DNA from: a virus
Lineage: Duplodnaviria; Heunggongvirae; Uroviricota; Caudoviricetes
Length of the DNA: 64,000 bases
IMG/VR virus record: IMGVR_UViG_3300022910_000004
Reading direction: 5' to 3' (one strand)
In this document: positions 2,619 through 25,119 of the stretch, in pieces
How the letters are laid out: every line of letters begins with the position of its first letter
Position numbering within the stretch: position 1 is the stretch's first letter
Program-made: the position numbers and the translations under genes
Notes under the pieces: model-generated
Told to the model about the DNA's origin: nothing
What the model saw: the letters and a program-made list of their open reading frames with translations, nothing else
Databases searched by the model: none

Positions 2619-3110
2619 ATGAGTAAAGTGGTTTATGCACCAAATCCATCAAGCCATAAAGGGAATGGTATTAATGTATTTCTTGCCGGAAGTATTGATA
2701 TGGGTAAGGCTGAAGACTGGCAACCAGTAGTAGCCAATATCCTAGAACAACTGCAAGAAGTGGGTGAGATATACAACCCTAGAAGATTAGACTTTCAACC
2801 AGATGCAGTACAGTCGATTGATAATGCATATTTCACTCAGCAAGTGCTATGGGAACTAGATCATCTTGAAAAAGCTGATGTAGTATTTATGTACTTAGAT
2901 CCAGCGTCTAAAGCTCCTATATCCCTATTAGAACTTGGATTACTGGCCAGAAGTGATAAGCTGATAGTGTGCTGTCCAAAAGGCTTCTGGCGTAAAGGTA
3001 ATGTGGATGTACTGTGTAACAGAATGGGTATATGCGTACTCGATAAGATGGATACAGCCATAAAAGCTTTGTGCCATATAATTCACTGTAAATATCTTGG
3101 AATCTACTAA
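2619..3110 (+). CDS. nucleoside 2-deoxyribosyltransferase-like protein
   Basis: VFLAGSI near the N-terminus followed by a conserved W, typical of the NDT/Rcl family; GGAGAATAGA RBS before the ATG. Confidence 0.4.
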   Translation: MSKVVYAPNPSSHKGNGINVFLAGSIDMGKAEDWQPVVANILEQLQEVGEIYNPRRLDFQPDAVQSIDNAYFTQQVLWELDHLEKADVVFMYLDPASKAPISLLELGLLARSDKLIVCCPKGFWRKGNVDVLCNRMGICVLDKMDTAIKALCHIIHCKYLGIY

Positions 3111-9641: not shown

Positions 9642-9717
9642 GCGCTGTTAGTTTAATGGATAGAACAGGGGATTTCTAATCCCTCGGCGGCGGGTTCGAC
9701 TCCCCCACGGCGTACCA
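9642..9717 (+). tRNA. tRNA-Arg (anticodon UCU)
   Basis: cloverleaf folded by hand: acceptor GCGCTGT/ACGGCGT (two G-U pairs), D arm GTTT/GAAC, anticodon stem GGGGA/TCCCT with loop TTTCTAA (TCT at 9675-9677), T arm GCGGG-TTCGACT-CCCCC (one mismatch), discriminator A and encoded CCA. Confidence 0.8.
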
Positions 9718-15304: not shown

Positions 15305-15339
15305 GGCATCTCTAAATTAGTGACGAAGGAGTTATGAAT

Positions 15340-16299
15340 ATGAATCAGATTGTTAATCTCGTGCCAAAGAAGAGTGAACAGTTTGTACCTTGGGAAGGAC
15401 TAGGTACTAAAATAAATGTAAAGGATTCATTGAAGACGACCATGAAAAACGCTGGCTTAGACTGGCAAGCGAAGCGTACCCCTAACTTATACGCTGTATC
15501 CGCAGATACCATCATAAAAGGTAGTAAATCTGTAATATATCGTTCAGATAATAATCTAGAGTTAGGCGTTGTTACTGATAAGTACAAAATTGCACAGCCA
15601 GAGGATATTGTTAAGCTCTATAAAGATTTGATCGATCTTAAAGGTTGGAAATTGGATGTACTTGGCACCCTAGATGGCGGAAAGCGTATCTGGGCTTTGG
15701 CCAAAACAGACTCATCTTTCTTTGCTGGAAATGATGAAGAGGATATTGTTGACATTCATTTGTTACTAACTACCACATTTGATGGGAATAGTAGCACTCA
15801 AGGTAAGTTTATTGGTTTGAGAAATATTTGTGGACAAAGTTTAAGTCTTGCAGTGGGTGAAAACTCTGGACTAACAAAAATACGATTAAATCATAAGGCT
15901 GAATTTAATCCTAAATTTATGACACAAAAATTGAATGTGTTGCCGAAAGCTTCAGAGGTATTTGAAGGACAAGTGGCAACGTTATGTAATAAGCCTATCA
16001 ATGATGCCCAAGCGGCGAGATTTTTGATAGATATGCTGGAAGGTGAAGGTGCAGACCCTGATGATTTATCAGTAAGACAGAGAAATCTTGTACTGAAAGT
16101 GCTCGAATTATATCAGGGCAAGGGTATTGGTAGCAAGTTTAAGTCCTCAAGAGGCACAGCTTGGGGTTTACTCAACGCACTGACACAACATGTAGATTAT
16201 GATGTTGGACTTAACACCAATAACATTATTCGCTCAGCTTGGTTTGGTTTAGGGGAAACCCTCAAAATCAAGGCAATGACCAAACTACTTAAAATTTAA
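15340..16299 (+). CDS. DUF932-family phage/plasmid protein
   Basis: N-terminal ...VPWEGLGT...AGLDWQAK pattern characteristic of DUF932 (from memory); start placed at the second ATG for RBS spacing. Confidence 0.45.
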   Translation: MNQIVNLVPKKSEQFVPWEGLGTKINVKDSLKTTMKNAGLDWQAKRTPNLYAVSADTIIKGSKSVIYRSDNNLELGVVTDKYKIAQPEDIVKLYKDLIDLKGWKLDVLGTLDGGKRIWALAKTDSSFFAGNDEEDIVDIHLLLTTTFDGNSSTQGKFIGLRNICGQSLSLAVGENSGLTKIRLNHKAEFNPKFMTQKLNVLPKASEVFEGQVATLCNKPINDAQAARFLIDMLEGEGADPDDLSVRQRNLVLKVLELYQGKGIGSKFKSSRGTAWGLLNALTQHVDYDVGLNTNNIIRSAWFGLGETLKIKAMTKLLKI

Positions 16300-16984: not shown

Positions 16985-17296
16985 ATGAATGCTTATAAAA
17001 TGTCAATCTCAGAACGTAGAGCACTTCTGGATTCCAGTCTAAAACGTGGGCGTATTGCCAGTATTGCATGGAAAAAAGCTTCTGGTGAGGCTACTAAACG
17101 TAATTTTACGGAAAAGTGTCTTGATGGATTTAGAGATGGTATAGAAAATGCAAAACCTAATCCAGTCAAAGACAAGCCTGAACTCTATACCGCTTGGGAT
17201 TTATCTAAAAGAGATTGGTCAAATGTAAATCTGAACAACTTGATAAGTGTAGCTCTTGATGGGGAGACATGGGAATTTGGGGCAGAAGATGTCTGA
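16985..17296 (+). CDS. hypothetical protein
   Basis: 103-aa ORF. Confidence 0.45.
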   Translation: MNAYKMSISERRALLDSSLKRGRIASIAWKKASGEATKRNFTEKCLDGFRDGIENAKPNPVKDKPELYTAWDLSKRDWSNVNLNNLISVALDGETWEFGAEDV

Positions 17297-17618
17297 GAAT
17301 CCTTATATTGAAACAGTAATAACTAACACTATTCGTAAGTACAATCCTAATTACGGTGATAATAGGGTTTGTGAATGTGGTCATACTTATGACAGGCATT
17401 TTGATTCATATGAAAATATGAGCCCAGTCGGTTGTAAGTATTGCCCCTGTGGCACTTTCGTAGAGGCGAATCTCATACTTAGGCATACACCTTTTGATAT
17501 TTATCAAGTACCTAATGAGTGCGTATTTGTTCTTGATATTGTGAATTGGATTAATAAGCAAGAGGACAAAGAAGTCTACACTAAACTTTTGGTTGCTTTG
17601 GGTGAGGAGATTTACTAA
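17289..17618 (+). CDS. Cys-rich (zinc-binding?) protein
   Basis: CECGHTYDRH...CKYCPCG. Confidence 0.45.
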   Translation: MSENPYIETVITNTIRKYNPNYGDNRVCECGHTYDRHFDSYENMSPVGCKYCPCGTFVEANLILRHTPFDIYQVPNECVFVLDIVNWINKQEDKEVYTKLLVALGEEIY

Positions 17619-18076
17619 TGCCAGTAGAAATAATTAAGGGTGACCTTCTTGATGCCTTCGATAGAGGTGAAGTTGATATAATTGGCCATGTAGTAAATTG
17701 TCAAAGTGTGATGGGATCAGGAATTGCTTTAGCTATTAAGAATCGTTACCCAAATGTTTATAAAAGTTATTTAGATTCATTCCCAGAAGCATTGAAAGAG
17801 GGTGTGACAAAAGACTTAATGCTTGGTCACGTTGAAGTTATTGATGGTGTTGCAAATATGTATGCCCAATTTAAATACGGGGCAGACAAGCGGCATTTAA
17901 ATTATGGAGCTATATCTCAATGTCTTTCGAGTCTGGCTATGTATGGAGATAAGAGTTACATCTTTGGCTTTCCTTATAAAATGGGTTGTGATCGAGCTGG
18001 TGGGGATTGGTCTGTTGTTTTAGAAATGATAGAATATTACTTTAACGATGTTAGAGTTAAAATCTATGAACTATAA
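17618..18076 (+). CDS. macro-domain protein, TARG1/OARD1/DarG-like (ADP-ribose binding or hydrolase)
   Basis: IIGHVVNCQSVMGSGIALAIK matches the HxxNxxxxMGAGIA macro-domain signature. Confidence 0.65.
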   Translation: MPVEIIKGDLLDAFDRGEVDIIGHVVNCQSVMGSGIALAIKNRYPNVYKSYLDSFPEALKEGVTKDLMLGHVEVIDGVANMYAQFKYGADKRHLNYGAISQCLSSLAMYGDKSYIFGFPYKMGCDRAGGDWSVVLEMIEYYFNDVRVKIYEL

Positions 18077-18737
18077 ACTCTATCAAATGTCTCCATCCAT
18101 CTTCGTTGTTGAAATGGATAATGCCGAAGATCTTGCACATACATTTTTAAGAGTGCAGGAATTTTATGAAAGTGAGAATGATGATTTCAGAGAAGGCGTT
18201 TTTACCATTGAAGAGTACAAGAAGTGGTATTGTACTCAAAGTTATGATGGGACATTTAGCTATGCCAAAGATTGGGTCGGATTTAATATCCATTCAAGTG
18301 TAATTGAACGGTGTTATGCTTGTTCCAGAGAATTCACTAAAGATGATATTTTCTTTTTAAGCATTTGTGCCAGCATAAAGAACCAAATAGGGGATAATGG
18401 ATACTATTTGTGTGGTATTAAAACATGTGATAAAGAAACTTTAGACCATGAGTTGGCTCATGCGCTGTTTAGTACTAATTTAGAATATCGACAAGTAATG
18501 ATTGATGCAGTGTTAGCAATAGATCGTTTGAATTTAGATGTTATTTTCACTACCTTACAAGATGAGGGATATTCGTTTTCTGTTGTTATAGATGAAACAC
18601 AGGCACATTTAAGTACTGGTCTGGTGAATATCCCAGAAACAGAGTATTTGTTAGGGTTAAGAAAACAATTTAGCAGTATCTTCAATAAGTTTATAAAAGA
18701 ACTTGGAGATCCTATATTAATAATGAGAGGAGCATAA
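18066..18737 (+). CDS. HExxH zincin-like protein (SprT/DUF45-like metallopeptidase?)
   Basis: DHELAHALF motif; several Cys; start ambiguous (18048, 18066 or 18087). Confidence 0.4.
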   Translation: MNYKLYQMSPSIFVVEMDNAEDLAHTFLRVQEFYESENDDFREGVFTIEEYKKWYCTQSYDGTFSYAKDWVGFNIHSSVIERCYACSREFTKDDIFFLSICASIKNQIGDNGYYLCGIKTCDKETLDHELAHALFSTNLEYRQVMIDAVLAIDRLNLDVIFTTLQDEGYSFSVVIDETQAHLSTGLVNIPETEYLLGLRKQFSSIFNKFIKELGDPILIMRGA

Positions 18738-18741
18738 TTTA

Positions 18742-18999
18742 ATGAATAAGGCACTAATTTTAATGATGATTACTCTTTGTCTTGTAGGCTGTGGAGACAA
18801 GTCTTATACAGATGATAGTGAAAATTATAAATTACCACCAGAACTCTCTGCATGTAAAGTTTACTATCTAGGTCAAGGCGGACTGCAAACAGGAATAACA
18901 GTAGTGCATTGCCCAAGAGCAGATACTACAACGTCTTATACACAGTCTTGTGGAAAAGGTTGCACAAGACATATTAATACTACAGTGGCGAGCTATTAA
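18742..18999 (+). CDS. lipoprotein
   Basis: lipobox LVGC. Confidence 0.5.
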   Translation: MNKALILMMITLCLVGCGDKSYTDDSENYKLPPELSACKVYYLGQGGLQTGITVVHCPRADTTTSYTQSCGKGCTRHINTTVASY

Positions 19000-19000
19000 T

Positions 19001-19948
19001 ATGAATTTAATTATGAAATGCCTATTCGGTAGCCACCTTTATGGTTTGAACACACCCACTTCAGATAAAGACTATAAAGGAATCTATTTGCCAGACAAAG
19101 ACAATTTGTTGCTTGGAAATTATGCCAAGCATTATTCTGAATCTACAGGTAATGATAAGACTAAGAATACTAAAGATGATATTGACGTGGAGATATTTTC
19201 TCTTCCCTATTTTATAGAACTTGCCTGTAAAGGCGAGACTGTAGCTTTGGATATGCTTCATGCAAGAGAGGAAATGTTTGAGTCTAATATTGGTGAAATA
19301 TGGTGGGAGCTAAAAAATAGACGTAAGATGTTCTACACCAAAGATATGAAGTCCTATATTGGCTATGCTCGTAAGCAGGCTAATAAGTACGGTATCAAAG
19401 GTAGTCGTATGGGGTCTGTTGAAGGAGCTATGAAAGCTTTAGCTAAACTAACACCCAATTGGAAATTGAGTCAGGTTTGGGACAACTTGCCCACAGATGA
19501 GTTTTTAATAAAAGTTACTATGAATGATAAATCCTCTGCAAAACCTTTAAATTTTTATGAGGTATGTGGCCGAAAGTACCAAGACACTTTATTTGTTTAC
19601 CAAGCTTATGAGCTTATAGAGGGGATCTATAAAGAGTATGGGGATAGGGCTAGACAAGCTAAGAATGATGAGGGCGTGGATTGGAAAGCTGTTAGTCATG
19701 CACTAAGGGCTTCTTACCAAATGCTTGGTATTTTGAATGATGGAGATTTTGAATATCCTCTCCCCCAAACAGAATTTTTGTTGGCGGTAAAAACAGGGCA
19801 GCTTAACTTTGTAAATGAAGTTCAGCCAGAATTAGATTCTCTTATCGTTAAGATCGAAAAGATGTCAGCGGAAAGTAGTTTACCAAATAAAGTTGACAGG
19901 AATTATTGGGATCAATGGTTATTAAATGTTTATAGAGAATATCTTTAG
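19001..19948 (+). CDS. Pol-beta-fold nucleotidyltransferase (unknown substrate)
   Basis: GSHLYGLNTPTSDKDYKG (GS...[DE]x[DE]) plus downstream DIDVE; start placed at the ATG following the stop of the lipoprotein gene. Confidence 0.5.
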   Translation: MNLIMKCLFGSHLYGLNTPTSDKDYKGIYLPDKDNLLLGNYAKHYSESTGNDKTKNTKDDIDVEIFSLPYFIELACKGETVALDMLHAREEMFESNIGEIWWELKNRRKMFYTKDMKSYIGYARKQANKYGIKGSRMGSVEGAMKALAKLTPNWKLSQVWDNLPTDEFLIKVTMNDKSSAKPLNFYEVCGRKYQDTLFVYQAYELIEGIYKEYGDRARQAKNDEGVDWKAVSHALRASYQMLGILNDGDFEYPLPQTEFLLAVKTGQLNFVNEVQPELDSLIVKIEKMSAESSLPNKVDRNYWDQWLLNVYREYL

Positions 19949-19957
19949 GAGAAAACA

Positions 19958-20830
19958 ATGACAATACAATTATTCATAGATGGGGTAGAAGTTCCTGTAA
20001 AAAAGATTAAATTTTCTGATGGGGGATCTAATGTAAAATTAGAAGTTCCTGAAGGATTATCTCCAAGAAGATACATATGCATTACAGTTGACCCAATTAC
20101 ACCCGCAGATAACTATTTGTGGGAAATCGGTTTGGTTATGTATGCTTTGGAGGTATTGTTTCCAGATTACGAAACAAAGACTATTATAAATTTACCATAT
20201 CTACCTCACGGCAGAGCAGATAGAGTGTTTGAAAGAGGTAATCCATGCCCTCTAGAATGTTTCTTTGATGAATTCCTTTGTTGGGAATTAGATAATATTG
20301 AGATTCATTTAACTGATCCGCATAGTGACTTTTATAAAAATTATGCAGATAATCTCGCTTTTGAAGTGAAAGAGCAGTACCAATGTTTTAGAGATACAGT
20401 TTTTGGATTCCAGTCTGGAGATTATTTAATAAGTCCTGATAAGGGGGCCAAGACTAAGATTCATCAACTTCAACAGTACTTAGATTCTCGCTGGGTGGCT
20501 TCATTTGTTGTTGAGGCGGAAAAAGTGAGAGATCCATCCAACGGTAAAATATTAGAAACTACTTTACCTGAAGGTATTGATCTTACTAATAAGGTATGTT
20601 ATATTGTCGATGACATTTGTGATGGAGGTGGAACATTCATCCCTCTCGCTGAGAAGCTTAAAGAAGCTGGAGCAAAAGAAGTTCATTTGTACGTCACTCA
20701 TGGCATATTCGCTAAAGGTTTGGATTTGTTTAAAGGTAAAATAGATAAGCTTCATGTATACCAAATAGTAAGTAATTATGTTACAATGATTGATATTATG
20801 AACTTTAATCAGGGGAAAGAGGTAAAATGA
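19958..20830 (+). CDS. ribose-phosphate pyrophosphokinase homolog (Prs-like; candidate ADPR-PP synthetase of NARP1 type)
   Basis: PRPP-binding loop YIVDDICDGGGT; divergent N-terminus lacking canonical Prs motifs. Confidence 0.65.
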   Translation: MTIQLFIDGVEVPVKKIKFSDGGSNVKLEVPEGLSPRRYICITVDPITPADNYLWEIGLVMYALEVLFPDYETKTIINLPYLPHGRADRVFERGNPCPLECFFDEFLCWELDNIEIHLTDPHSDFYKNYADNLAFEVKEQYQCFRDTVFGFQSGDYLISPDKGAKTKIHQLQQYLDSRWVASFVVEAEKVRDPSNGKILETTLPEGIDLTNKVCYIVDDICDGGGTFIPLAEKLKEAGAKEVHLYVTHGIFAKGLDLFKGKIDKLHVYQIVSNYVTMIDIMNFNQGKEVK

Positions 20831-21105
20831 TTATGTTTAGCGATCACTGCCAAAAATGTGGACACAGCCTAGAGTGTATGGCCGGTGAATCTGCACACCC
20901 CTCTAATTGGTATTGTCCAAACAAGAATTGTGAGAAAGACGCTCAAGAACTTAAGATAAAATATCTTAAAAGTAAACGAGATCACCTAATTGATGAAGCA
21001 CAGAAGGCAGCACATGCCTACTTCGTTGAGTGTGATATTGGGAAGGAGCGTGAAAAGGCTGGCGAGATATATGAAAATATCCGTACTGCTGGAAGAGTTT
21101 ATTAA
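20827..21105 (+). CDS. zinc-ribbon protein
   Basis: CQKCGH...CPNKNC. Confidence 0.45.
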   Translation: MIMFSDHCQKCGHSLECMAGESAHPSNWYCPNKNCEKDAQELKIKYLKSKRDHLIDEAQKAAHAYFVECDIGKEREKAGEIYENIRTAGRVY

Positions 21106-21136: not shown

Positions 21137-22858
21137 ATGCCATTAGCACAAACAGATAGTTATAAGCTTTCACACAAAGGGTTTATGAATAAAGGTACAA
21201 CTAAGCTTTATTCAAATATGACCGCCCGTTCTGGCAAACATTTCCCCGTCCTGCAAGATCGTTGGGATGGTAAAGTAGTAGTATTTGGATTTCAAAAGTT
21301 TGTCATTGAATTCCTGATTAATGAGTGGAACAGTAAGTTCTTTCAAATGCCTAAACATAAGGCTATTAAGAAATTCAAACGCCTTGTAGATGCTTACCTT
21401 GGTAAAGATGCTGTTGATATGGCACACTTCGAAGCTTTGCATGATATTGGTTATTTACCTTTGCACATCAAGTCTATTGATGAAGGTAATCGTGTAAATA
21501 TTAAAGTTCCTTTGTGGACTATTACAAATACTCATCCAGATTTTGCATGGTTAGTGAACTATCTCGAAACTGTGATGTCTTGTGAGTGCTGGAAACCAAT
21601 TACCACAGCTACGATTATCTCTGAATATCGTAAACTGATTAATGAATATGCACTAAAGACCACTGGCAGCTTAATGGGCACACAGTTCCAGATTCATGGT
21701 TTTGAATTCCGTGGAATGGCAAATCGTCAAGATGCAGCAAGCTGTGCAGCCGGAATGTGCTTATCTACAAATGGTACAGATACAATTCCAGCTTTAGAAT
21801 TAATTGAAGAGTACTACTTCACTGATATTGAGAAGTACTTTGTGGCAACTTCTGTGCCAGCAAGCGAACACTCTATTGCGTGTCTTGGAACTGCTGTACA
21901 AGGTGAATTAGAATCCTATCGTAAATGGATTACTGTAGACTATCCTACTGGCATTGTAAGCTTGGTAAGCGATACCTACGATTATTGGAAAGTACTAACA
22001 GAGTATCTCCCAATTCTTAAGCCCGATATTCTTGCTCGTCCAGTTAATGAGATTGGTTTGAGTAAAGTAGTTATTCGTCCTGATTCTGGTAACCCTGCGG
22101 ATATTATTTGTGGAGATGTTTTCACAGATTTAACTAAAGACTGTAAAGATTTTGACACTTTCAAACGTTGGGCGTTAGAAATCATTCGGGAAGAAGTGGG
22201 AGATGATACTCCTCATGGAGAGTGTGGTGAATGTAACCCAAACAAAATCTTCAAATGGCAAGATAAGTACTATGATGTACATGCAGAAATTGAATGGAAT
22301 CGTTATGATAAACAATACTATTATATGGAGGACGAACGCATCACTAGTGTGGAAGAAATTGAACTTACACCAGAACAAAAAGGCTCTGTAGAACTCCTCT
22401 GGGAGACCTTTGGAGGCACTGTAACAGAGCAGGGATACAAAGTATTAGACAGTCACATAGGATTGATCTATGGTGATTCTATTACACTTAAAGTGGCTTT
22501 AGATGTAATGGAACGATTAGCAGCCAAAGGATTTGCCTCAACAAACATAGTGTTTGGTGTAGGCAGTTATACAATGCAGTATCTAACTCGTGATAGCTTA
22601 GGTATGGCAGTTAAAGCCACCTATGGCGAAGTTGATGGTGTTGGTTATGAGTTGTTTAAAGATCCAATTACTGATAGCGGTATGAAGAAGTCAGCAAAAG
22701 GATTGTTACGTGTGGAAAAAGAGGGAGATGATTACGTTCTATATGATCAGCAAACTCTAGAGCAAGAGGCTACAGGGGAATTAACTTCTCTGTTTTTGAA
22801 TGGGAAATTGATGAAACAAACTACATTCGAAGAATGTCGTAATCGTCTTTGGAAATAA
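21137..22858 (+). CDS. nadV: nicotinamide phosphoribosyltransferase family protein (NadV/Nampt-like; candidate Namat)
   Basis: 573 aa; type-II PRTase RPDSGNPADI motif; adjacent to Prs-like gene. Confidence 0.75.
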   Translation: MPLAQTDSYKLSHKGFMNKGTTKLYSNMTARSGKHFPVLQDRWDGKVVVFGFQKFVIEFLINEWNSKFFQMPKHKAIKKFKRLVDAYLGKDAVDMAHFEALHDIGYLPLHIKSIDEGNRVNIKVPLWTITNTHPDFAWLVNYLETVMSCECWKPITTATIISEYRKLINEYALKTTGSLMGTQFQIHGFEFRGMANRQDAASCAAGMCLSTNGTDTIPALELIEEYYFTDIEKYFVATSVPASEHSIACLGTAVQGELESYRKWITVDYPTGIVSLVSDTYDYWKVLTEYLPILKPDILARPVNEIGLSKVVIRPDSGNPADIICGDVFTDLTKDCKDFDTFKRWALEIIREEVGDDTPHGECGECNPNKIFKWQDKYYDVHAEIEWNRYDKQYYYMEDERITSVEEIELTPEQKGSVELLWETFGGTVTEQGYKVLDSHIGLIYGDSITLKVALDVMERLAAKGFASTNIVFGVGSYTMQYLTRDSLGMAVKATYGEVDGVGYELFKDPITDSGMKKSAKGLLRVEKEGDDYVLYDQQTLEQEATGELTSLFLNGKLMKQTTFEECRNRLWK

Positions 22859-23404: not shown

Positions 23405-24289
23405 ATGAATGAACAATCCGTATCAAAACTTGCTAAATGGGGAATTATTTCTATTATAGCAATTATTGTGCTCGCTGTGTTAAGTCCATTTAACACTGTC
23501 CCCACTGGTACTCGTGGTGTAGTAACTCAGTTTGGTGCTATTAAAGGTATTGAACAAGAGGGTTTAGTAATCCTACCTCCTTGGCAAAAACTCTCTGTAT
23601 TCAATACACGAGCAGAAGAAGCCACTATCGAGAAGGCTGTAGGGGCTACAAGTGATACACAACCAGTATTTGTTAGTCTTACTGTACGCTATAATGTCTT
23701 CCCAGACCGTGTAGCAGAAGTATATGAGAAATACTCTCGTGATGGAGACTTGTCTTCATATGTACAGACAGCAACTGCTGAAGTATTTAAGGCAGTAACA
23801 GCCAAATACACTGCACCAGACCTTATTAGTCAACGTGCAAAAGTATCAACTGATATTGTAGAAGCTTTGTCTAAGAAACTGTCTTTATATGGTGCAAACG
23901 TAATAAACGTTGATATGCGTAACTTTGAGTTTTCTGCCACTTATATGACAGCAATTAATCAAAAGGTTACTCAAGAGCAATTACGATTAGTAGCAGAGAA
24001 TCAACTGAAGACGGTGGAAGCAGAGCAAAAGCAGAAAGTTGCTATTGCTGAAGCAGAAGCTAATGCCGCTCGTGCAAAGGCTGATGGTGAATCTTACGCT
24101 AACTTAAAGATTGCATCAGCTCAAGCTGAAGCACTACGAATTCAGAATGCTGCATTAGCTCAAAATAAAGATGTGTTAGAGCTTCGTCGTATTGAAGTAG
24201 AAATGAAAAAAGCTGAAAATTGGAATGGTGCCCTACCACAAAATATTTATGCTGGTGCCCCAATTCCCTTTATGAACTTTCCTAAATAA
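23405..24289 (+). CDS. SPFH/band-7 (prohibitin/HflKC-like) membrane protein
   Basis: N-terminal TM then TGTRGVVTQFGAI...LPPW core; Ala/Glu-rich coiled coil at C-terminus. Confidence 0.65.
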   Translation: MNEQSVSKLAKWGIISIIAIIVLAVLSPFNTVPTGTRGVVTQFGAIKGIEQEGLVILPPWQKLSVFNTRAEEATIEKAVGATSDTQPVFVSLTVRYNVFPDRVAEVYEKYSRDGDLSSYVQTATAEVFKAVTAKYTAPDLISQRAKVSTDIVEALSKKLSLYGANVINVDMRNFEFSATYMTAINQKVTQEQLRLVAENQLKTVEAEQKQKVAIAEAEANAARAKADGESYANLKIASAQAEALRIQNAALAQNKDVLELRRIEVEMKKAENWNGALPQNIYAGAPIPFMNFPK

Positions 24290-24408: not shown

Positions 24409-25119
24409 ATGGCAAATAGTCTTGGCGATAGAATGAAGGGTTATGAACATGTTAATCGTAACTTCTTGATTAAAAGAATGCCTGTGGTTATCCGTTTGGA
24501 TGGAAAAGCTTTCCACACTTACACTAAAAACTGTGGAAAGCCTTATGACTCAGATTTGCATATTGTTCGTAAGGCGACTCTGGAACATCTTTGCAAAGAA
24601 ATACAAGGTGTTATTATAGGGTATTCTCAGTCAGATGAGATATCCCTTGTTCTTAAAGACTGGCAGACATTCAACACTTCTGCTTGGTTTAACAATAACA
24701 TCCAGAAAATTTGCAGTGTATCGGCCTCAATGTGTACGATGAGGTGGAATAGTGCAGTTAATTTCATGAACTATGATATTGGGCATATTGTTTTAGAGCC
24801 TTGTGCTATGTTTGACTCAAGAGTGTTCAATCTTCCCAAAGAGGAAGTAGTGAATTATTTAATCTGGAGGCAACAAGATTGGGAACGTAACTCTGTCCAA
24901 ATGTTGGCCCAAAGCTTATACTCTCACAAAGAGTTACAAGGTAAAAGCTGCTCCCAATTGATTACTAAAATCGAAGAGGAATTTAATATTATCTGGGGAA
25001 ATTTTTTGCCTTGGAAAAAGCAAGGTGAAATTTGGTTTGGTGGGAAAACACAAGAGAGTTTTCTTTTTAAGAATAATCGTGTCCTTATTGAGGAAGAACT
25101 TAATTTGGAGTTGAATTGA
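24409..25119 (+). CDS. tRNA-His guanylyltransferase Thg1-like protein (3'-5' nucleotide addition)
   Basis: RLDGKAFH and GYSQSDEISLVL match the Thg1 catalytic core. Confidence 0.7.
   Translation: MANSLGDRMKGYEHVNRNFLIKRMPVVIRLDGKAFHTYTKNCGKPYDSDLHIVRKATLEHLCKEIQGVIIGYSQSDEISLVLKDWQTFNTSAWFNNNIQKICSVSASMCTMRWNSAVNFMNYDIGHIVLEPCAMFDSRVFNLPKEEVVNYLIWRQQDWERNSVQMLAQSLYSHKELQGKSCSQLITKIEEEFNIIWGNFLPWKKQGEIWFGGKTQESFLFKNNRVLIEEELNLELN

Follow-up and report, generated by a model that had tools for sequence, protein, structure and literature searches.

A stand-alone macrodomain gene (positions 17618..18076, + strand) in the 64,000-nt stretch of Caudoviricetes phage DNA analysed here (IMG/VR record IMGVR_UViG_3300022910_000004; hereafter the window) lies in one gene cluster with both enzymes of NARP1, an NAD+-rebuilding pathway, and most likely assists that pathway instead of representing a novel kind of antidote. 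The chances are about even that it encodes an Adpp-like phosphatase, which would convert ADP-ribose-1''-phosphate (ADPR-1''-phosphate) to ADP-ribose (ADPR) for NARP1, the arrangement termed NARP1-AP that opposes RES-type NADases. Macrodomain genes rank with the most common ADP-ribose-handling genes of large phages, and functions were assigned to them only in 2025-2026, namely Adpp, which feeds NARP1 against RES NADases, and AdfM, which acts against DarTG2. The type of small ADP-ribose-processing enzyme encoded here has already been described in phages.

The macrodomain gene and its fold

The ORF encodes 152 aa with no other domain, runs from an ATG to a TAA stop codon, and is confirmed as a real gene. 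A Shine-Dalgarno-like GAGGAG is located 8 nt 5' of the ATG, and the start codon shares bases with the stop of the ORF before it (TAATG). Genes for a primase/helicase, PolA, ligase and RNR are found nearby, together with structural genes. The initial annotation had placed a phage-encoded macro domain at these positions, and on this point ORF, fold, similarity and phage neighbours all agree. Homologues were present in 1804 phage records at 1806 places, i.e., nearly always in single copy. As a paralogue would have suggested a division of labour, a second copy was sought in the window by an HMM search of all six-frame ORFs, but none was found. A megablast search of 50,697 phage records returned no match to the 7-kb region; with no close sequenced relative of the phage available, context was taken from metagenomic contigs.

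The predicted structure (pLDDT 94.8) is that of a macrodomain, a three-layer α/β fold with an ADP-ribose-binding cleft. The solved structures nearest to this model were BT1257/SCO6735, DarG, Poa1p and TARG1, and by these neighbours the protein is predicted to belong to the ALC1-like/TARG1-DarG-Poa1p group. Sequence comparisons likewise indicated a likeness to macrodomains far above chance, with matches to PHROG 335 'phosphatase' (E=1.6e-41), full-length matches to BT1257 (2fg1, E=7e-8) and SCO6735 (5e3b, E=2e-5), and matches to the NCBIfam (E=5e-13) and PADLOC (E=1.4e-11, model positions 3-140 of 329) DarG models that were confined to the macro part. Within the group, this stand-alone protein is predicted to be a catalytically competent member of a branch in which Gln replaces the catalytic Lys (Gln-type) and to which SCO6735/BT1257, phage Adpp and T4 Tk.4 belong. 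Pfam's generic Macro model (PF01661) is insensitive to this branch; its match to the window protein covered residues 26-58 only and, at 14.4 bits, missed the gathering cut-off of 22. The clade first proposed for the protein, TARG1/DarG, holds for the broad group indicated by the structural neighbours but not beyond it, as the TARG1/DarG catalytic residues and the DarG C-terminal domain are missing.

Binding loops and catalytic positions

The peptide IIGHVVNCQSVMGSGIALAIK (residues 21-41, nt 17678-17740), initially read as a TARG1/OARD1 signature, is in fact the general ADP-ribose-binding loop common to the whole ALC1-like/TARG1-DarG-Poa1p group. Loop 1 itself, H24-V-V-N27-C-Q-S-V-M-G-S-G35-I-A37 (17687..17728, + strand), was delimited from family alignments and from alignments with DarG, SCO6735 and AdfM. 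N27, G35 and A37 were invariant across the family in two alignments, and N27 pairs with N22 of DarG and with N23 of PhiKZ AdfM, mutation of which lowers AdfM activity (PMC13309987).

Alignment to 5e3b and multiple alignments placed Gln84 (codon CAA, 17867..17869, + strand), which is conserved in at least 90% of the family, at the catalytic-Lys position of TARG1 (K84) and DarG (K80), equivalent to Gln85 of SCO6735. In the latter enzyme Q85 is essential and has been stated to be the equivalent of K84/K80 (PMC9411070). V25 of the window protein also aligns with V25 of SCO6735, and Lys34 of SCO6735 is replaced by Ser34. The loop that follows Q84 has 12 residues (K86, K91 and R92 among them) against 14-15 in SCO6735/BT1257, relative to which the mobile loop is shortened by 2-3 residues, and 9 in TARG1.

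Loop 2, G123-C-D125-R126-A127-G-G-D-W131 (17984..18010, + strand), was defined from family conservation, a motif table of 86 loci and alignments. It carries the signature 'xR[AG]G[GA]xW' of a subgroup (the 'xR-loop' subgroup), whereas SCO6735, Adpp of Vibrio phage Gary and TARG1 have GCGL(A/D) instead. Within this subgroup, Arg126 is invariant and residue 125 is usually acidic, both lying in the diphosphate/distal-ribose loop, and the combination is absent from the assayed relatives: the Gary Adpp loop reads GCGLAGGDW against GCDRAGGDW in the window protein, and SCO6735/BT1257 have G-L for D-R.

Ala127 occupies the position of TARG1 D125. Both members of the TARG1 dyad, K84/D125, are thus replaced, by Q84 and A127, in a protein with 25% identity to human TARG1/OARD1, the TARG1 sequence used for comparison having been checked solely against published residue numbers. 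A strict TARG1/DarG mechanism was rejected on these grounds. The initial annotation had named absence of the catalytic residues as what would refute its main idea, a DarG-type antidote to DarT; this is not valid, because the Gln variant also occurs in SCO6735, Gary Adpp and T4 Tk.4/AdfM, and the Gln-type SCO6735 and T4 Tk.4/AdfM act against DarT. Judged by these analogues, anti-DarT activity would be compatible with the absence of the TARG1/DarG residues.

A gene cluster with Adps and Namat

The macrodomain gene belongs to a series of genes, all on the + strand, in the order macro, orf229, orf85, RlaP, Adps, orf92 and Namat, which either overlap or are spaced by no more than 31 nt. The first NARP1 enzyme, an Adps-like PRPP-synthetase homologue (19958..20830; Pfam Pribosyltran / PHROG 619), is 41% identical to the Vibrio phage 1.063.O protein so named in Table S1 of the NARP1-AP preprint (bioRxiv 10.64898/2026.01.28.702374). 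The second, the nicotinamide ADP-ribose transferase Namat (21137..22858; PHROG 448, 1.7e-176), matched the SPbetaL1 structures 9W5X/9W5W, confirmed as Namat (PMC12774641), at E=3.7e-131 vs 1e-57 for human NAMPT, and its identity as Namat is solid. Adps lies two ORFs upstream of Namat, with only a 92-aa zinc-ribbon ORF (20827..21105, + strand) between them. In relatives this slot is filled by unrelated small genes; the idea that a macrodomain gene is concealed in their Adps-Namat spacer was rejected on that account. The tight spacing of the cluster is followed by a 547-nt gap and then by the best promoter-like site. Promoter and terminator scans gave counts equal to the shuffled expectation and thus add no operon boundaries to what gene spacing shows.

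Three ORFs, or about 1.9 kb, separate the macrodomain gene from Adps. The first (18048..18737), whose 229-aa product contains an HExxH (HELAH) motif, is a variable insert found only in a 99% identical relative (L007) and had no Pfam, PHROG, PADLOC or NCBIfam match; the second, of 85 aa (18742..18999), has a lipoprotein-like signal and corresponds to DUF4884 in a relative. The third encodes an RlaP-family nucleotidyltransferase (18950..19948, likely start ATG 18998; Pfam RlaP 1.3e-12, PHROG 388 3e-98) with 42% identity to T4 NrdC.11. The preprint counts macrodomain genes as associated when they lie no more than two genes away from the NARP1 pair, a distance exceeded here. With this locus, an environmental phage lineage is added whose macrodomain gene is NARP1-linked yet outside the strict operon definition, and the published figure of 15% for NARP1-associated macrodomain genes may therefore be an underestimate.

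The presence of the RlaP-family gene raised the alternative of an RNA-linked role, in which the macrodomain would act with this enzyme and a Thg1-like enzyme in RNA repair by clearing ADPR-1''-phosphate or Appr>p by-products, the task of Poa1p in yeast tRNA splicing, or would remove ADP-ribose that host ADP-ribosyltransferases have attached to RNA or protein. In the window and three related contigs (L004, L005 and L008) an RlaP-family gene follows the macrodomain gene within one to two genes, a Thg1-like gene lies 6 kb downstream, and in T4 tk.4 and the RlaP homologue nrdC.11 are about 4.5 kb apart. This adjacency, however, is confined to close relatives and may be plain synteny; it was seen in none of the 76 other IMG/VR loci. 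The remainder of an RNA-repair set (Tpt1/KptA 2'-phosphotransferase, RNA ligase and polynucleotide kinase) was absent among the window ORFs scanned, and no ADP-ribosyltransferase gene was found nearby. An RNA-linked role is considered improbable. In sequence, likeness to Poa1p, an ADP-ribose 1''-phosphate phosphatase, was weak (E=3.5e-3), mostly N-terminal, and Poa1p differs in loop 2 (INSGIAGVPW).

Two further products encoded in the window, a SLOG-family protein and a deoxyribosyltransferase-like protein, would be in keeping with a macrodomain that breaks ADPR-derived immune messengers, such as the cyclic ADPR isomers of Thoeris or other 1''-linked ADPR conjugates, thereby silencing the defence and freeing ADPR for NARP1. 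Accessory enzymes that feed NARP1 with ADPR from immune signals are reported, for another fold, in a RyR-domain preprint. The validated activities of the Gln-type branch are, however, those of a phosphatase (Gary Adpp) and of DNA de-ADP-ribosylation (SCO6735, and T4 Tk.4 by genetics), and of the explanations weighed signal degradation is the one given least credence.

Linkage to NARP1 among relatives

The closest annotated relatives of the window gene are those of Vibrio phage K354 (41% identity), located between Adps and Namat, and Vibrio phage 1.063.O (43% identity, E=3e-38), directly upstream of Namat. Table S1 (bioRxiv 10.64898/2026.01.28.702374) counts the proteins of 1.063.O and RYC among the NARP1-associated macro proteins, and both carry the motifs PxKMGCDRAGGxW and NLHAQ, as does the window protein. 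Identities to the Table S1 macro proteins were 43% for 1.063.O, 37% for RYC, 34% for PH357 and 33% for JG004.

Adps and Namat were both encoded within 10 kb and on the same strand at 35 of 80 IMG/VR loci with a macro relative. After dereplication, linkage within 10 kb was seen in 22 of the 54 clusters formed at 90% identity and in 19 of the 49 formed at 70% (about 40%). With base rates of 859 NARP1 pathways in 20,185 phage genomes (bioRxiv 10.64898/2026.01.28.702374) and of Namat/NAMPT-like genes in 1634 of 50,697 phage records, this amounts to a roughly ten-fold enrichment. Like the fold, N27, Q84 and the Gly-rich loops, this statistical linkage of the family to NARP1 was shown here. Distance and order varied even within the lineage of the window: NARP1 lies at +3.3 kb in L004, and L005 has it 7 kb upstream. 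In Felixounavirus HY02 no NARP1 genes lay within 9 kb of the macro homologue, and that phage therefore adds no support.

About 60% of the macro relatives have no NARP1 within 10 kb. Among the Barbaviruses, 84.6-kb variants carry Adps and Namat directly downstream of the macrodomain gene, and their 80.3-kb relatives carry the macrodomain gene alone. As most Barbaviruses and all T4-like phages hold a homologue without NARP1, the family also has a NARP1-independent use.

Possible phosphatase or anti-DarT2 activity

Clustering with NARP1 and the NARP1-embedded position of the closest relatives suggest the role of an Adpp-type phosphatase, and we infer this activity, what it acts on and which defence it opposes as follows. 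Enzymes of the Gln-type branch bind ADP-ribose and hydrolyse whatever sits on C1''. The likeliest substrate here would be ADPR-1''-phosphate, made from NAD+ by an RES-domain NADase defence (aRES), and removal of its phosphate would yield free ADPR. Adps would then pyrophosphorylate ADPR to ADPR-PP, from which, together with nicotinamide, Namat would produce NAD+. This scheme has been published as 'NARP1 with associated phosphatase', and Adpp of Vibrio phage Gary (KNV71_gp137) was shown by Osterman et al. to be an ADPR-1''-phosphate phosphatase (bioRxiv 10.64898/2026.01.28.702374). Gary Adpp resembles the window protein in being a stand-alone phage macrodomain of about 155 aa with Gln at the catalytic-Lys position and an H-x-x-N-C...MG-x-GIA loop (29% identity over 160 aa, E=1e-12), and the window locus resembles NARP1-AP in that the macrodomain gene is clustered with Adps and Namat, both of them present. 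In NARP1-AP, however, the phosphatase gene lies between these two genes rather than upstream of the pair. While the initial annotation was right in recognising a phage macrodomain of the broad group, it had missed this NARP1 context.

The function that it had favoured instead, an orphan DarG-type antidote which, like AdfM, would remove the ADP-ribose placed by host DarT2 on thymidines of phage ssDNA, is the main rival, possible but doubtful. SCO6735 of Streptomyces coelicolor, which together with BT1257 of Bacteroides thetaiotaomicron represents the cellular, non-phage Gln-type ALC1-like macrodomains, has V25, N27 and Q84/85 in common with the window protein (29% identity, E=8e-11) and is highly active on ADPr-thymidine DNA, from which it strips DarT ADP-ribose despite having Gln85 and no Asp (PMC9411070). 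T4 Tk.4, or AdfM, is a stand-alone phage macrodomain of the Gln type (NLYTQ), similar in length and homologous over its full length (26% identity, E=3e-11); it guards T4 against DarTG2 (bioRxiv 10.1101/2025.11.20.689424), and T4 growth on DarTG2 hosts needs it, a role known from genetics rather than biochemistry (10.1101/2025.11.20.689424, HIDEN-SEQ preprint). T4 nevertheless differs in having no NARP1, and Tk.4 in its loop 2 (RIGAGIGKGNW). Many relatives without NARP1 are also found in early/replication regions beside primase and polymerase.

Several observations weigh against this role. DarG and PhiKZ gp104 (AdfM) share the fold and N-terminal ADPr-binding loop of the window protein, but carry Lys (K80 in DarG, and K78 in AdfM, within FPTK in the hhalign alignment) where the window protein has Gln. 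DarG in addition has a DarT-binding C-terminal domain and an adjacent DarT, and the window protein has neither: the NCBIfam DarG match reached 49 bits against a cut-off of 250 (positions 2-147 of 338), and no DarT or ART gene was detected among the neighbouring ORFs scanned with PADLOC, Pfam, PHROG and NCBIfam. A full DarG antitoxin was therefore rejected. So was close kinship to the K-type PhiKZ AdfM, which is remote (BLASTP 27 residues; hhalign 97.9% probability, about 22% identity). Lys34 of SCO6735, important in DNA positioning, is Ser34 here, and the NARP1-embedded closest relatives and roughly ten-fold linkage point away from an antidote as the main role. The window protein is acidic (pI 5.1 vs 8.7-9.6 for SCO6735/BT1257), but net charge and pI were uninformative as discriminators between DNA and small-molecule substrates, both proven DNA-acting AdfM proteins being acidic too.

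Although the Adpp-like phosphatase is preferred, phosphatase and DNA glycohydrolase are inseparable by homology in the Gln-type branch. The window protein scored 51 bits with the validated Adpp, 46-50 with SCO6735/BT1257 and 47 with T4 Tk.4/AdfM and is thus no closer to Adpp, whereas Gary Adpp and T4 Tk.4 (77 bits) are closer to each other than either is to the window protein. Labels such as 'DarG-like antitoxin' or 'phosphatase' are consequently unsafe from sequence alone. The active site could act on DarT2-modified thymidine too, as those of related Gln-type enzymes do, and phosphatase and AdfM-like roles may reside in one protein. With an assayed Adpp (Gary) and a genetically defined AdfM (T4 Tk.4) in one branch, unsplittable by homology, whether one enzyme serves against two defences becomes directly testable. 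It is also conceivable, if rather unlikely, that the 'xR-loop' subgroup is a functionally distinct enzyme, either a single broad-spectrum C1''-hydrolase that uses ADPR-1''-phosphate to supply NARP1 and also frees DNA of DarT2 ADP-ribose, or one specific for a still unknown ADPR derivative of host immunity. The frequent absence of NARP1 beside subgroup members, as in most Barbaviruses, and their tight coupling to it elsewhere would fit a dual-use enzyme, in which case one small gene would disarm two unrelated defence classes.

The macro gene encodes an ALC1-like macrodomain

The macro gene (17618..18076, + strand) begins with an ATG that shares bases with the stop of the ORF before it (TAATG), is preceded 8 nt upstream of its start by a ribosome-binding-like element (GAGGAG), and encodes a protein of 152 aa, hereafter the window protein. 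It is present as one copy in the window, as in nearly all phage records. The peptide IIGHVVNCQSVMGSGIALAIK, from which a DarG/TARG1-type macro domain had initially been proposed, was found at residues 21-41, as described. Against the Pfam Macro model the protein scored 14.4 bits, under the cut-off of 22, and it matched the viral family PHROG 335 ('phosphatase') at 1.6e-41. A PDB sequence search matched BT1257 (7e-8) and SCO6735 (2e-5) over the full length; the similarity to M. tuberculosis DarG (5e-5) and to yeast Poa1p (3.5e-3) was N-terminal, and TARG1 reached 0.14 only. An AlphaFold2 model built with 85 homologues as input was confident, with a pLDDT of 94.8 and a pTM of 0.89. Curated DarG models covered the macro part (NCBIfam 5e-13, PADLOC 1.4e-11), the NCBIfam score of 49 bits falling below the equivalog cut-off of 250 because the window protein is without the DarT-binding C-terminal domain. 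On the basis of the PDB matches, the structural model and the DarG profiles, assignment to the ALC1-like clade, that is, the TARG1/DarG/Poa1p group, therefore holds.

The catalytic lysine is replaced by glutamine

In multiple alignments that included TARG1, whose sequence here and in the pairwise comparisons was checked against its published numbering only, the window protein carries Gln84 at the catalytic Lys position and Ala127 at the position of TARG1 Asp125. The Lys and Asp equivalents of TARG1/DarG, on which the initial annotation had made its assignment depend, are thus absent. V25, N27 and Q84 align with V25, N27 and Q85 of SCO6735, in which Gln85 stands in for the catalytic Lys (K84 in TARG1, K80 in DarG) and Asp125 is also lacking; SCO6735 is nevertheless highly efficient at taking DarT-derived ADP-ribose off thymidine, an activity for which Q85 is indispensable (PMC9411070). 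Because this Gln-type branch is active, the missing Lys and Asp do not amount to a valid refutation of function. With high probability the window protein is a working hydrolase of a group attached to C1'' of ADP-ribose.

Among the 85 homologues, N27, G35, A37 and P119 were invariant, and H24, M32-G33-S34, Q84 and R126-A127-G128-G129-D130-W131 were at least 90% conserved. The loop PYKMGCDRAGGDW marks a subgroup; Arg126 is retained almost everywhere, whereas position 125 is variable (D, C, H, Y or V), and the alignments place G-L at positions 125-126 in SCO6735, BT1257, Gary Adpp and TARG1.

Relationship to phage macrodomains of known function

Phage macrodomains tied to NARP1, the NAD+ reconstitution pathway in which Adps converts ADPR to ADPR-PP and Namat joins this to nicotinamide, have already been described, as have those countering DarT2. 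The RES-domain defence proteins aRES cleave NAD+, releasing nicotinamide together with ADPR-1''-phosphate, a compound that is of no use to NARP1; a macro-domain gene, Adpp, occurs in ~15% of NARP1 operons, and the Adpp of Vibrio phage Gary converts ADPR-1''P to ADPR, restoring NARP1 activity (bioRxiv 10.64898/2026.01.28.702374, Osterman et al.). The T4 macrodomain gene tk.4, named adfM (anti-DarT factor macrodomain), is required for growth on a DarTG2 host (HIDEN-SEQ preprint 10.1101/2025.11.20.689424), and PhiKZ gp104, likewise named AdfM, strips DarT2-derived ADP-ribose off DNA via N23 and K78 (Cell Reports, PMC13309987).

NARP1-associated macro proteins from Table S1 of the Adpp study (bioRxiv 10.64898/2026.01.28.702374), which already lists close relatives of the window protein, were compared pairwise with PhiKZ gp104 and T4 Tk.4 from genome records and the other proteins. 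Among the Table S1 entries, identity to the window protein was 43% for Vibrio phage 1.063.O (E=3e-38), 37% for RYC (E=5e-29), 34% for PH357 (E=1e-27) and 33% for JG004 (E=2e-20). The assayed Gary Adpp followed at 29% (E=1e-12), with BT1257 at 26% (E=4e-12), T4 Tk.4 at 26% (E=3e-11), SCO6735 at 29% (E=8e-11) and TARG1 at 25% (E=1e-5). PhiKZ AdfM aligned over only 27 residues by BLASTP, with an hhalign probability of 97.9%; in all the other phage proteins compared, the catalytic-position residue is Gln. Gary Adpp and T4 Tk.4 are closer to each other (77 bits) than to the window protein (51 and 47 bits, respectively), and both documented phage functions therefore fall in one branch, inseparable by homology alone. 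The window protein belongs to a sister subgroup.

The macro gene lies in a cluster with NARP1

Between about 5.1 kb and 47.5 kb of the window, every gene is on the + strand. The macro gene directly follows a zinc-binding-like ORF (17256..17618, 120 aa) and is overlapped at its end by a HExxH (HELAH) ORF (18048..18737, 229 aa); a lipoprotein-like ORF (18742..18999, 85 aa), an RlaP-family nucleotidyltransferase (18950..19948), a PRPP-synthetase-like gene (19958..20830), a zinc-ribbon ORF (20827..21105, 92 aa) and a NAMPT-like gene (21137..22858) come next, all on the + strand, with overlaps or gaps of at most 31 nt throughout this stretch. The 547-nt gap 3' of the cluster holds the region's best promoter-like site; promoter and terminator scans were otherwise no better than shuffled sequence. 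The 229-aa ORF had no match in Pfam, PHROGs, PADLOC or NCBIfam, and looks like a recent insert, since it was found only in a 99%-identical relative (L007) and is missing in the related contigs L004 and L005.

The NAMPT-like protein matched the SPbetaL1 Namat crystal structures 9W5X/9W5W (codes confirmed as Namat) at 3.7e-131 and human NAMPT at 1e-57, and the PRPP-synthetase-like protein shares 41% identity with the Vibrio phage 1.063.O gene listed as Adps. Judged from these matches, NARP1 is thus present in the cluster in full, and 1.9 kb separates Adps from the macro gene upstream of it.

In the best annotated phage matches the macro gene has Adps on one side and Namat on the other (K354 and relatives) or stands directly before Namat (Vibrio phage 1.063.O). 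Of 80 IMG/VR loci with a relative of the macro gene, 35 had both genes within 10 kb of it, always on the same strand; dereplication left 22 of 54 clusters (90% identity) or 19 of 49 (70%). The NARP1 base rate is ~4% (859 pathways in 20,185 genomes; bioRxiv 10.64898/2026.01.28.702374), and Namat/NAMPT-like genes were found in 1634 of 50,697 phage records. The association is looser inside the window's own lineage: Adps is 3.3 kb downstream in L004 (68% identity), NARP1 is 5-7 kb upstream in L005 (53%), and no NARP1 was seen within 10 kb in L008 (51%). In Barbavirus the macro gene stands alone in almost all of 115 records; in Barba19A and Barba31A (84.6 kb) Adps and Namat are immediately downstream.

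Because of this genomic context, ADPR-1''-phosphate is the favoured substrate and NARP1 the favoured consumer of the product. The window protein would convert ADPR-1''-phosphate to ADPR, which NARP1 would then use; the chances that it acts in this Adpp-like way, as part of a NARP1-AP (NARP1 with associated phosphatase) of loose organisation, are judged to be about even. The main alternative, an anti-DarT2 role, as the initial annotation had suggested, is compatible with it and is supported by SCO6735, by T4 Tk.4 and by the many relatives without NARP1; it is considered rather unlikely. Degradation of ADPR-derived signals by the window protein is considered improbable. Two questions can be tested: what the conserved Arg126 variant of the loop does, and whether a single enzyme acts in both kinds of counter-defence.

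Neighbouring genes and other features

An RlaP-family gene lies 1-2 genes after the macro gene in four related contigs (window, 18950-19948, +; L004, 8725-9705; L005, 9113-10081; and L008). The window RlaP protein is 42% identical to T4 NrdC.11 (L087, 436-1446; E=7e-90), and nrdC.11 is about 4.5 kb from tk.4; a functional pairing with the macro gene is possible. The NARP1 region is flanked by a DUF932 protein (15334-16299, +), an SPFH/Band-7 protein (23405-24289, +) and a Thg1-like tRNA-His guanylyltransferase homologue (24409-25119, +), and several unrelated IMG/VR loci (L020, L025, L041, L054, L055) likewise have a Thg1-like gene at most 7 kb from the macro gene. Given the conserved RlaP gene nearby and the Thg1-like gene, a link of the macro gene to RNA repair is possible; however, the synteny was seen among close relatives only, and no Tpt1/KptA, RNA ligase or kinase was detected among those window ORFs that were scanned.

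The early region encodes a SLOG-family protein (1099-1560, +; Pfam YAcAr, 4e-16) and a nucleoside 2-deoxyribosyltransferase-like protein (2619-3110, +; PF15891, 7e-31). As both folds have been tied by comparative genomics to NAD+/ADPR-derived signalling conflicts (PMC9503650), the phage may be equipped with several counter-defence genes related to ADPR.

The window Namat is longer (573 aa) than the crystallised SPbetaL1 Namat (491 aa), and its PDB match is split in two, which implies that ~80 aa are inserted after residue 328; the Namat genes of Vibrio phages, at about 1.65 kb or some 550 aa, are similarly long. The small gene that separates Adps from Namat differs from relative to relative: it is the zinc-ribbon ORF (20827-21105, +) in the window, an HNH/AP2-like 135-aa ORF in L004 (12022-12429) and an unrelated 153-aa ORF in L005 (1572-2033). 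An HNH endonuclease splits or adjoins Namat in several database phages. Most Barbavirus genomes, such as Barba18A (L003), are about 80.3 kb with the macro gene alone, whereas the 84.6-kb genomes (Barba19A-like L060, 84,608 bp) carry Adps and Namat as an insert directly 3' of it; the window Namat has its best phage-database match in theirs (62% identity). A single tRNA-Arg (anticodon TCT) was found at 9642-9717 (+). At about 47.8 kb gene orientation changes from + to - and the GC-skew sign flips, with large ORFs on the - strand beyond; the window is AT-rich throughout (GC 33-39%).
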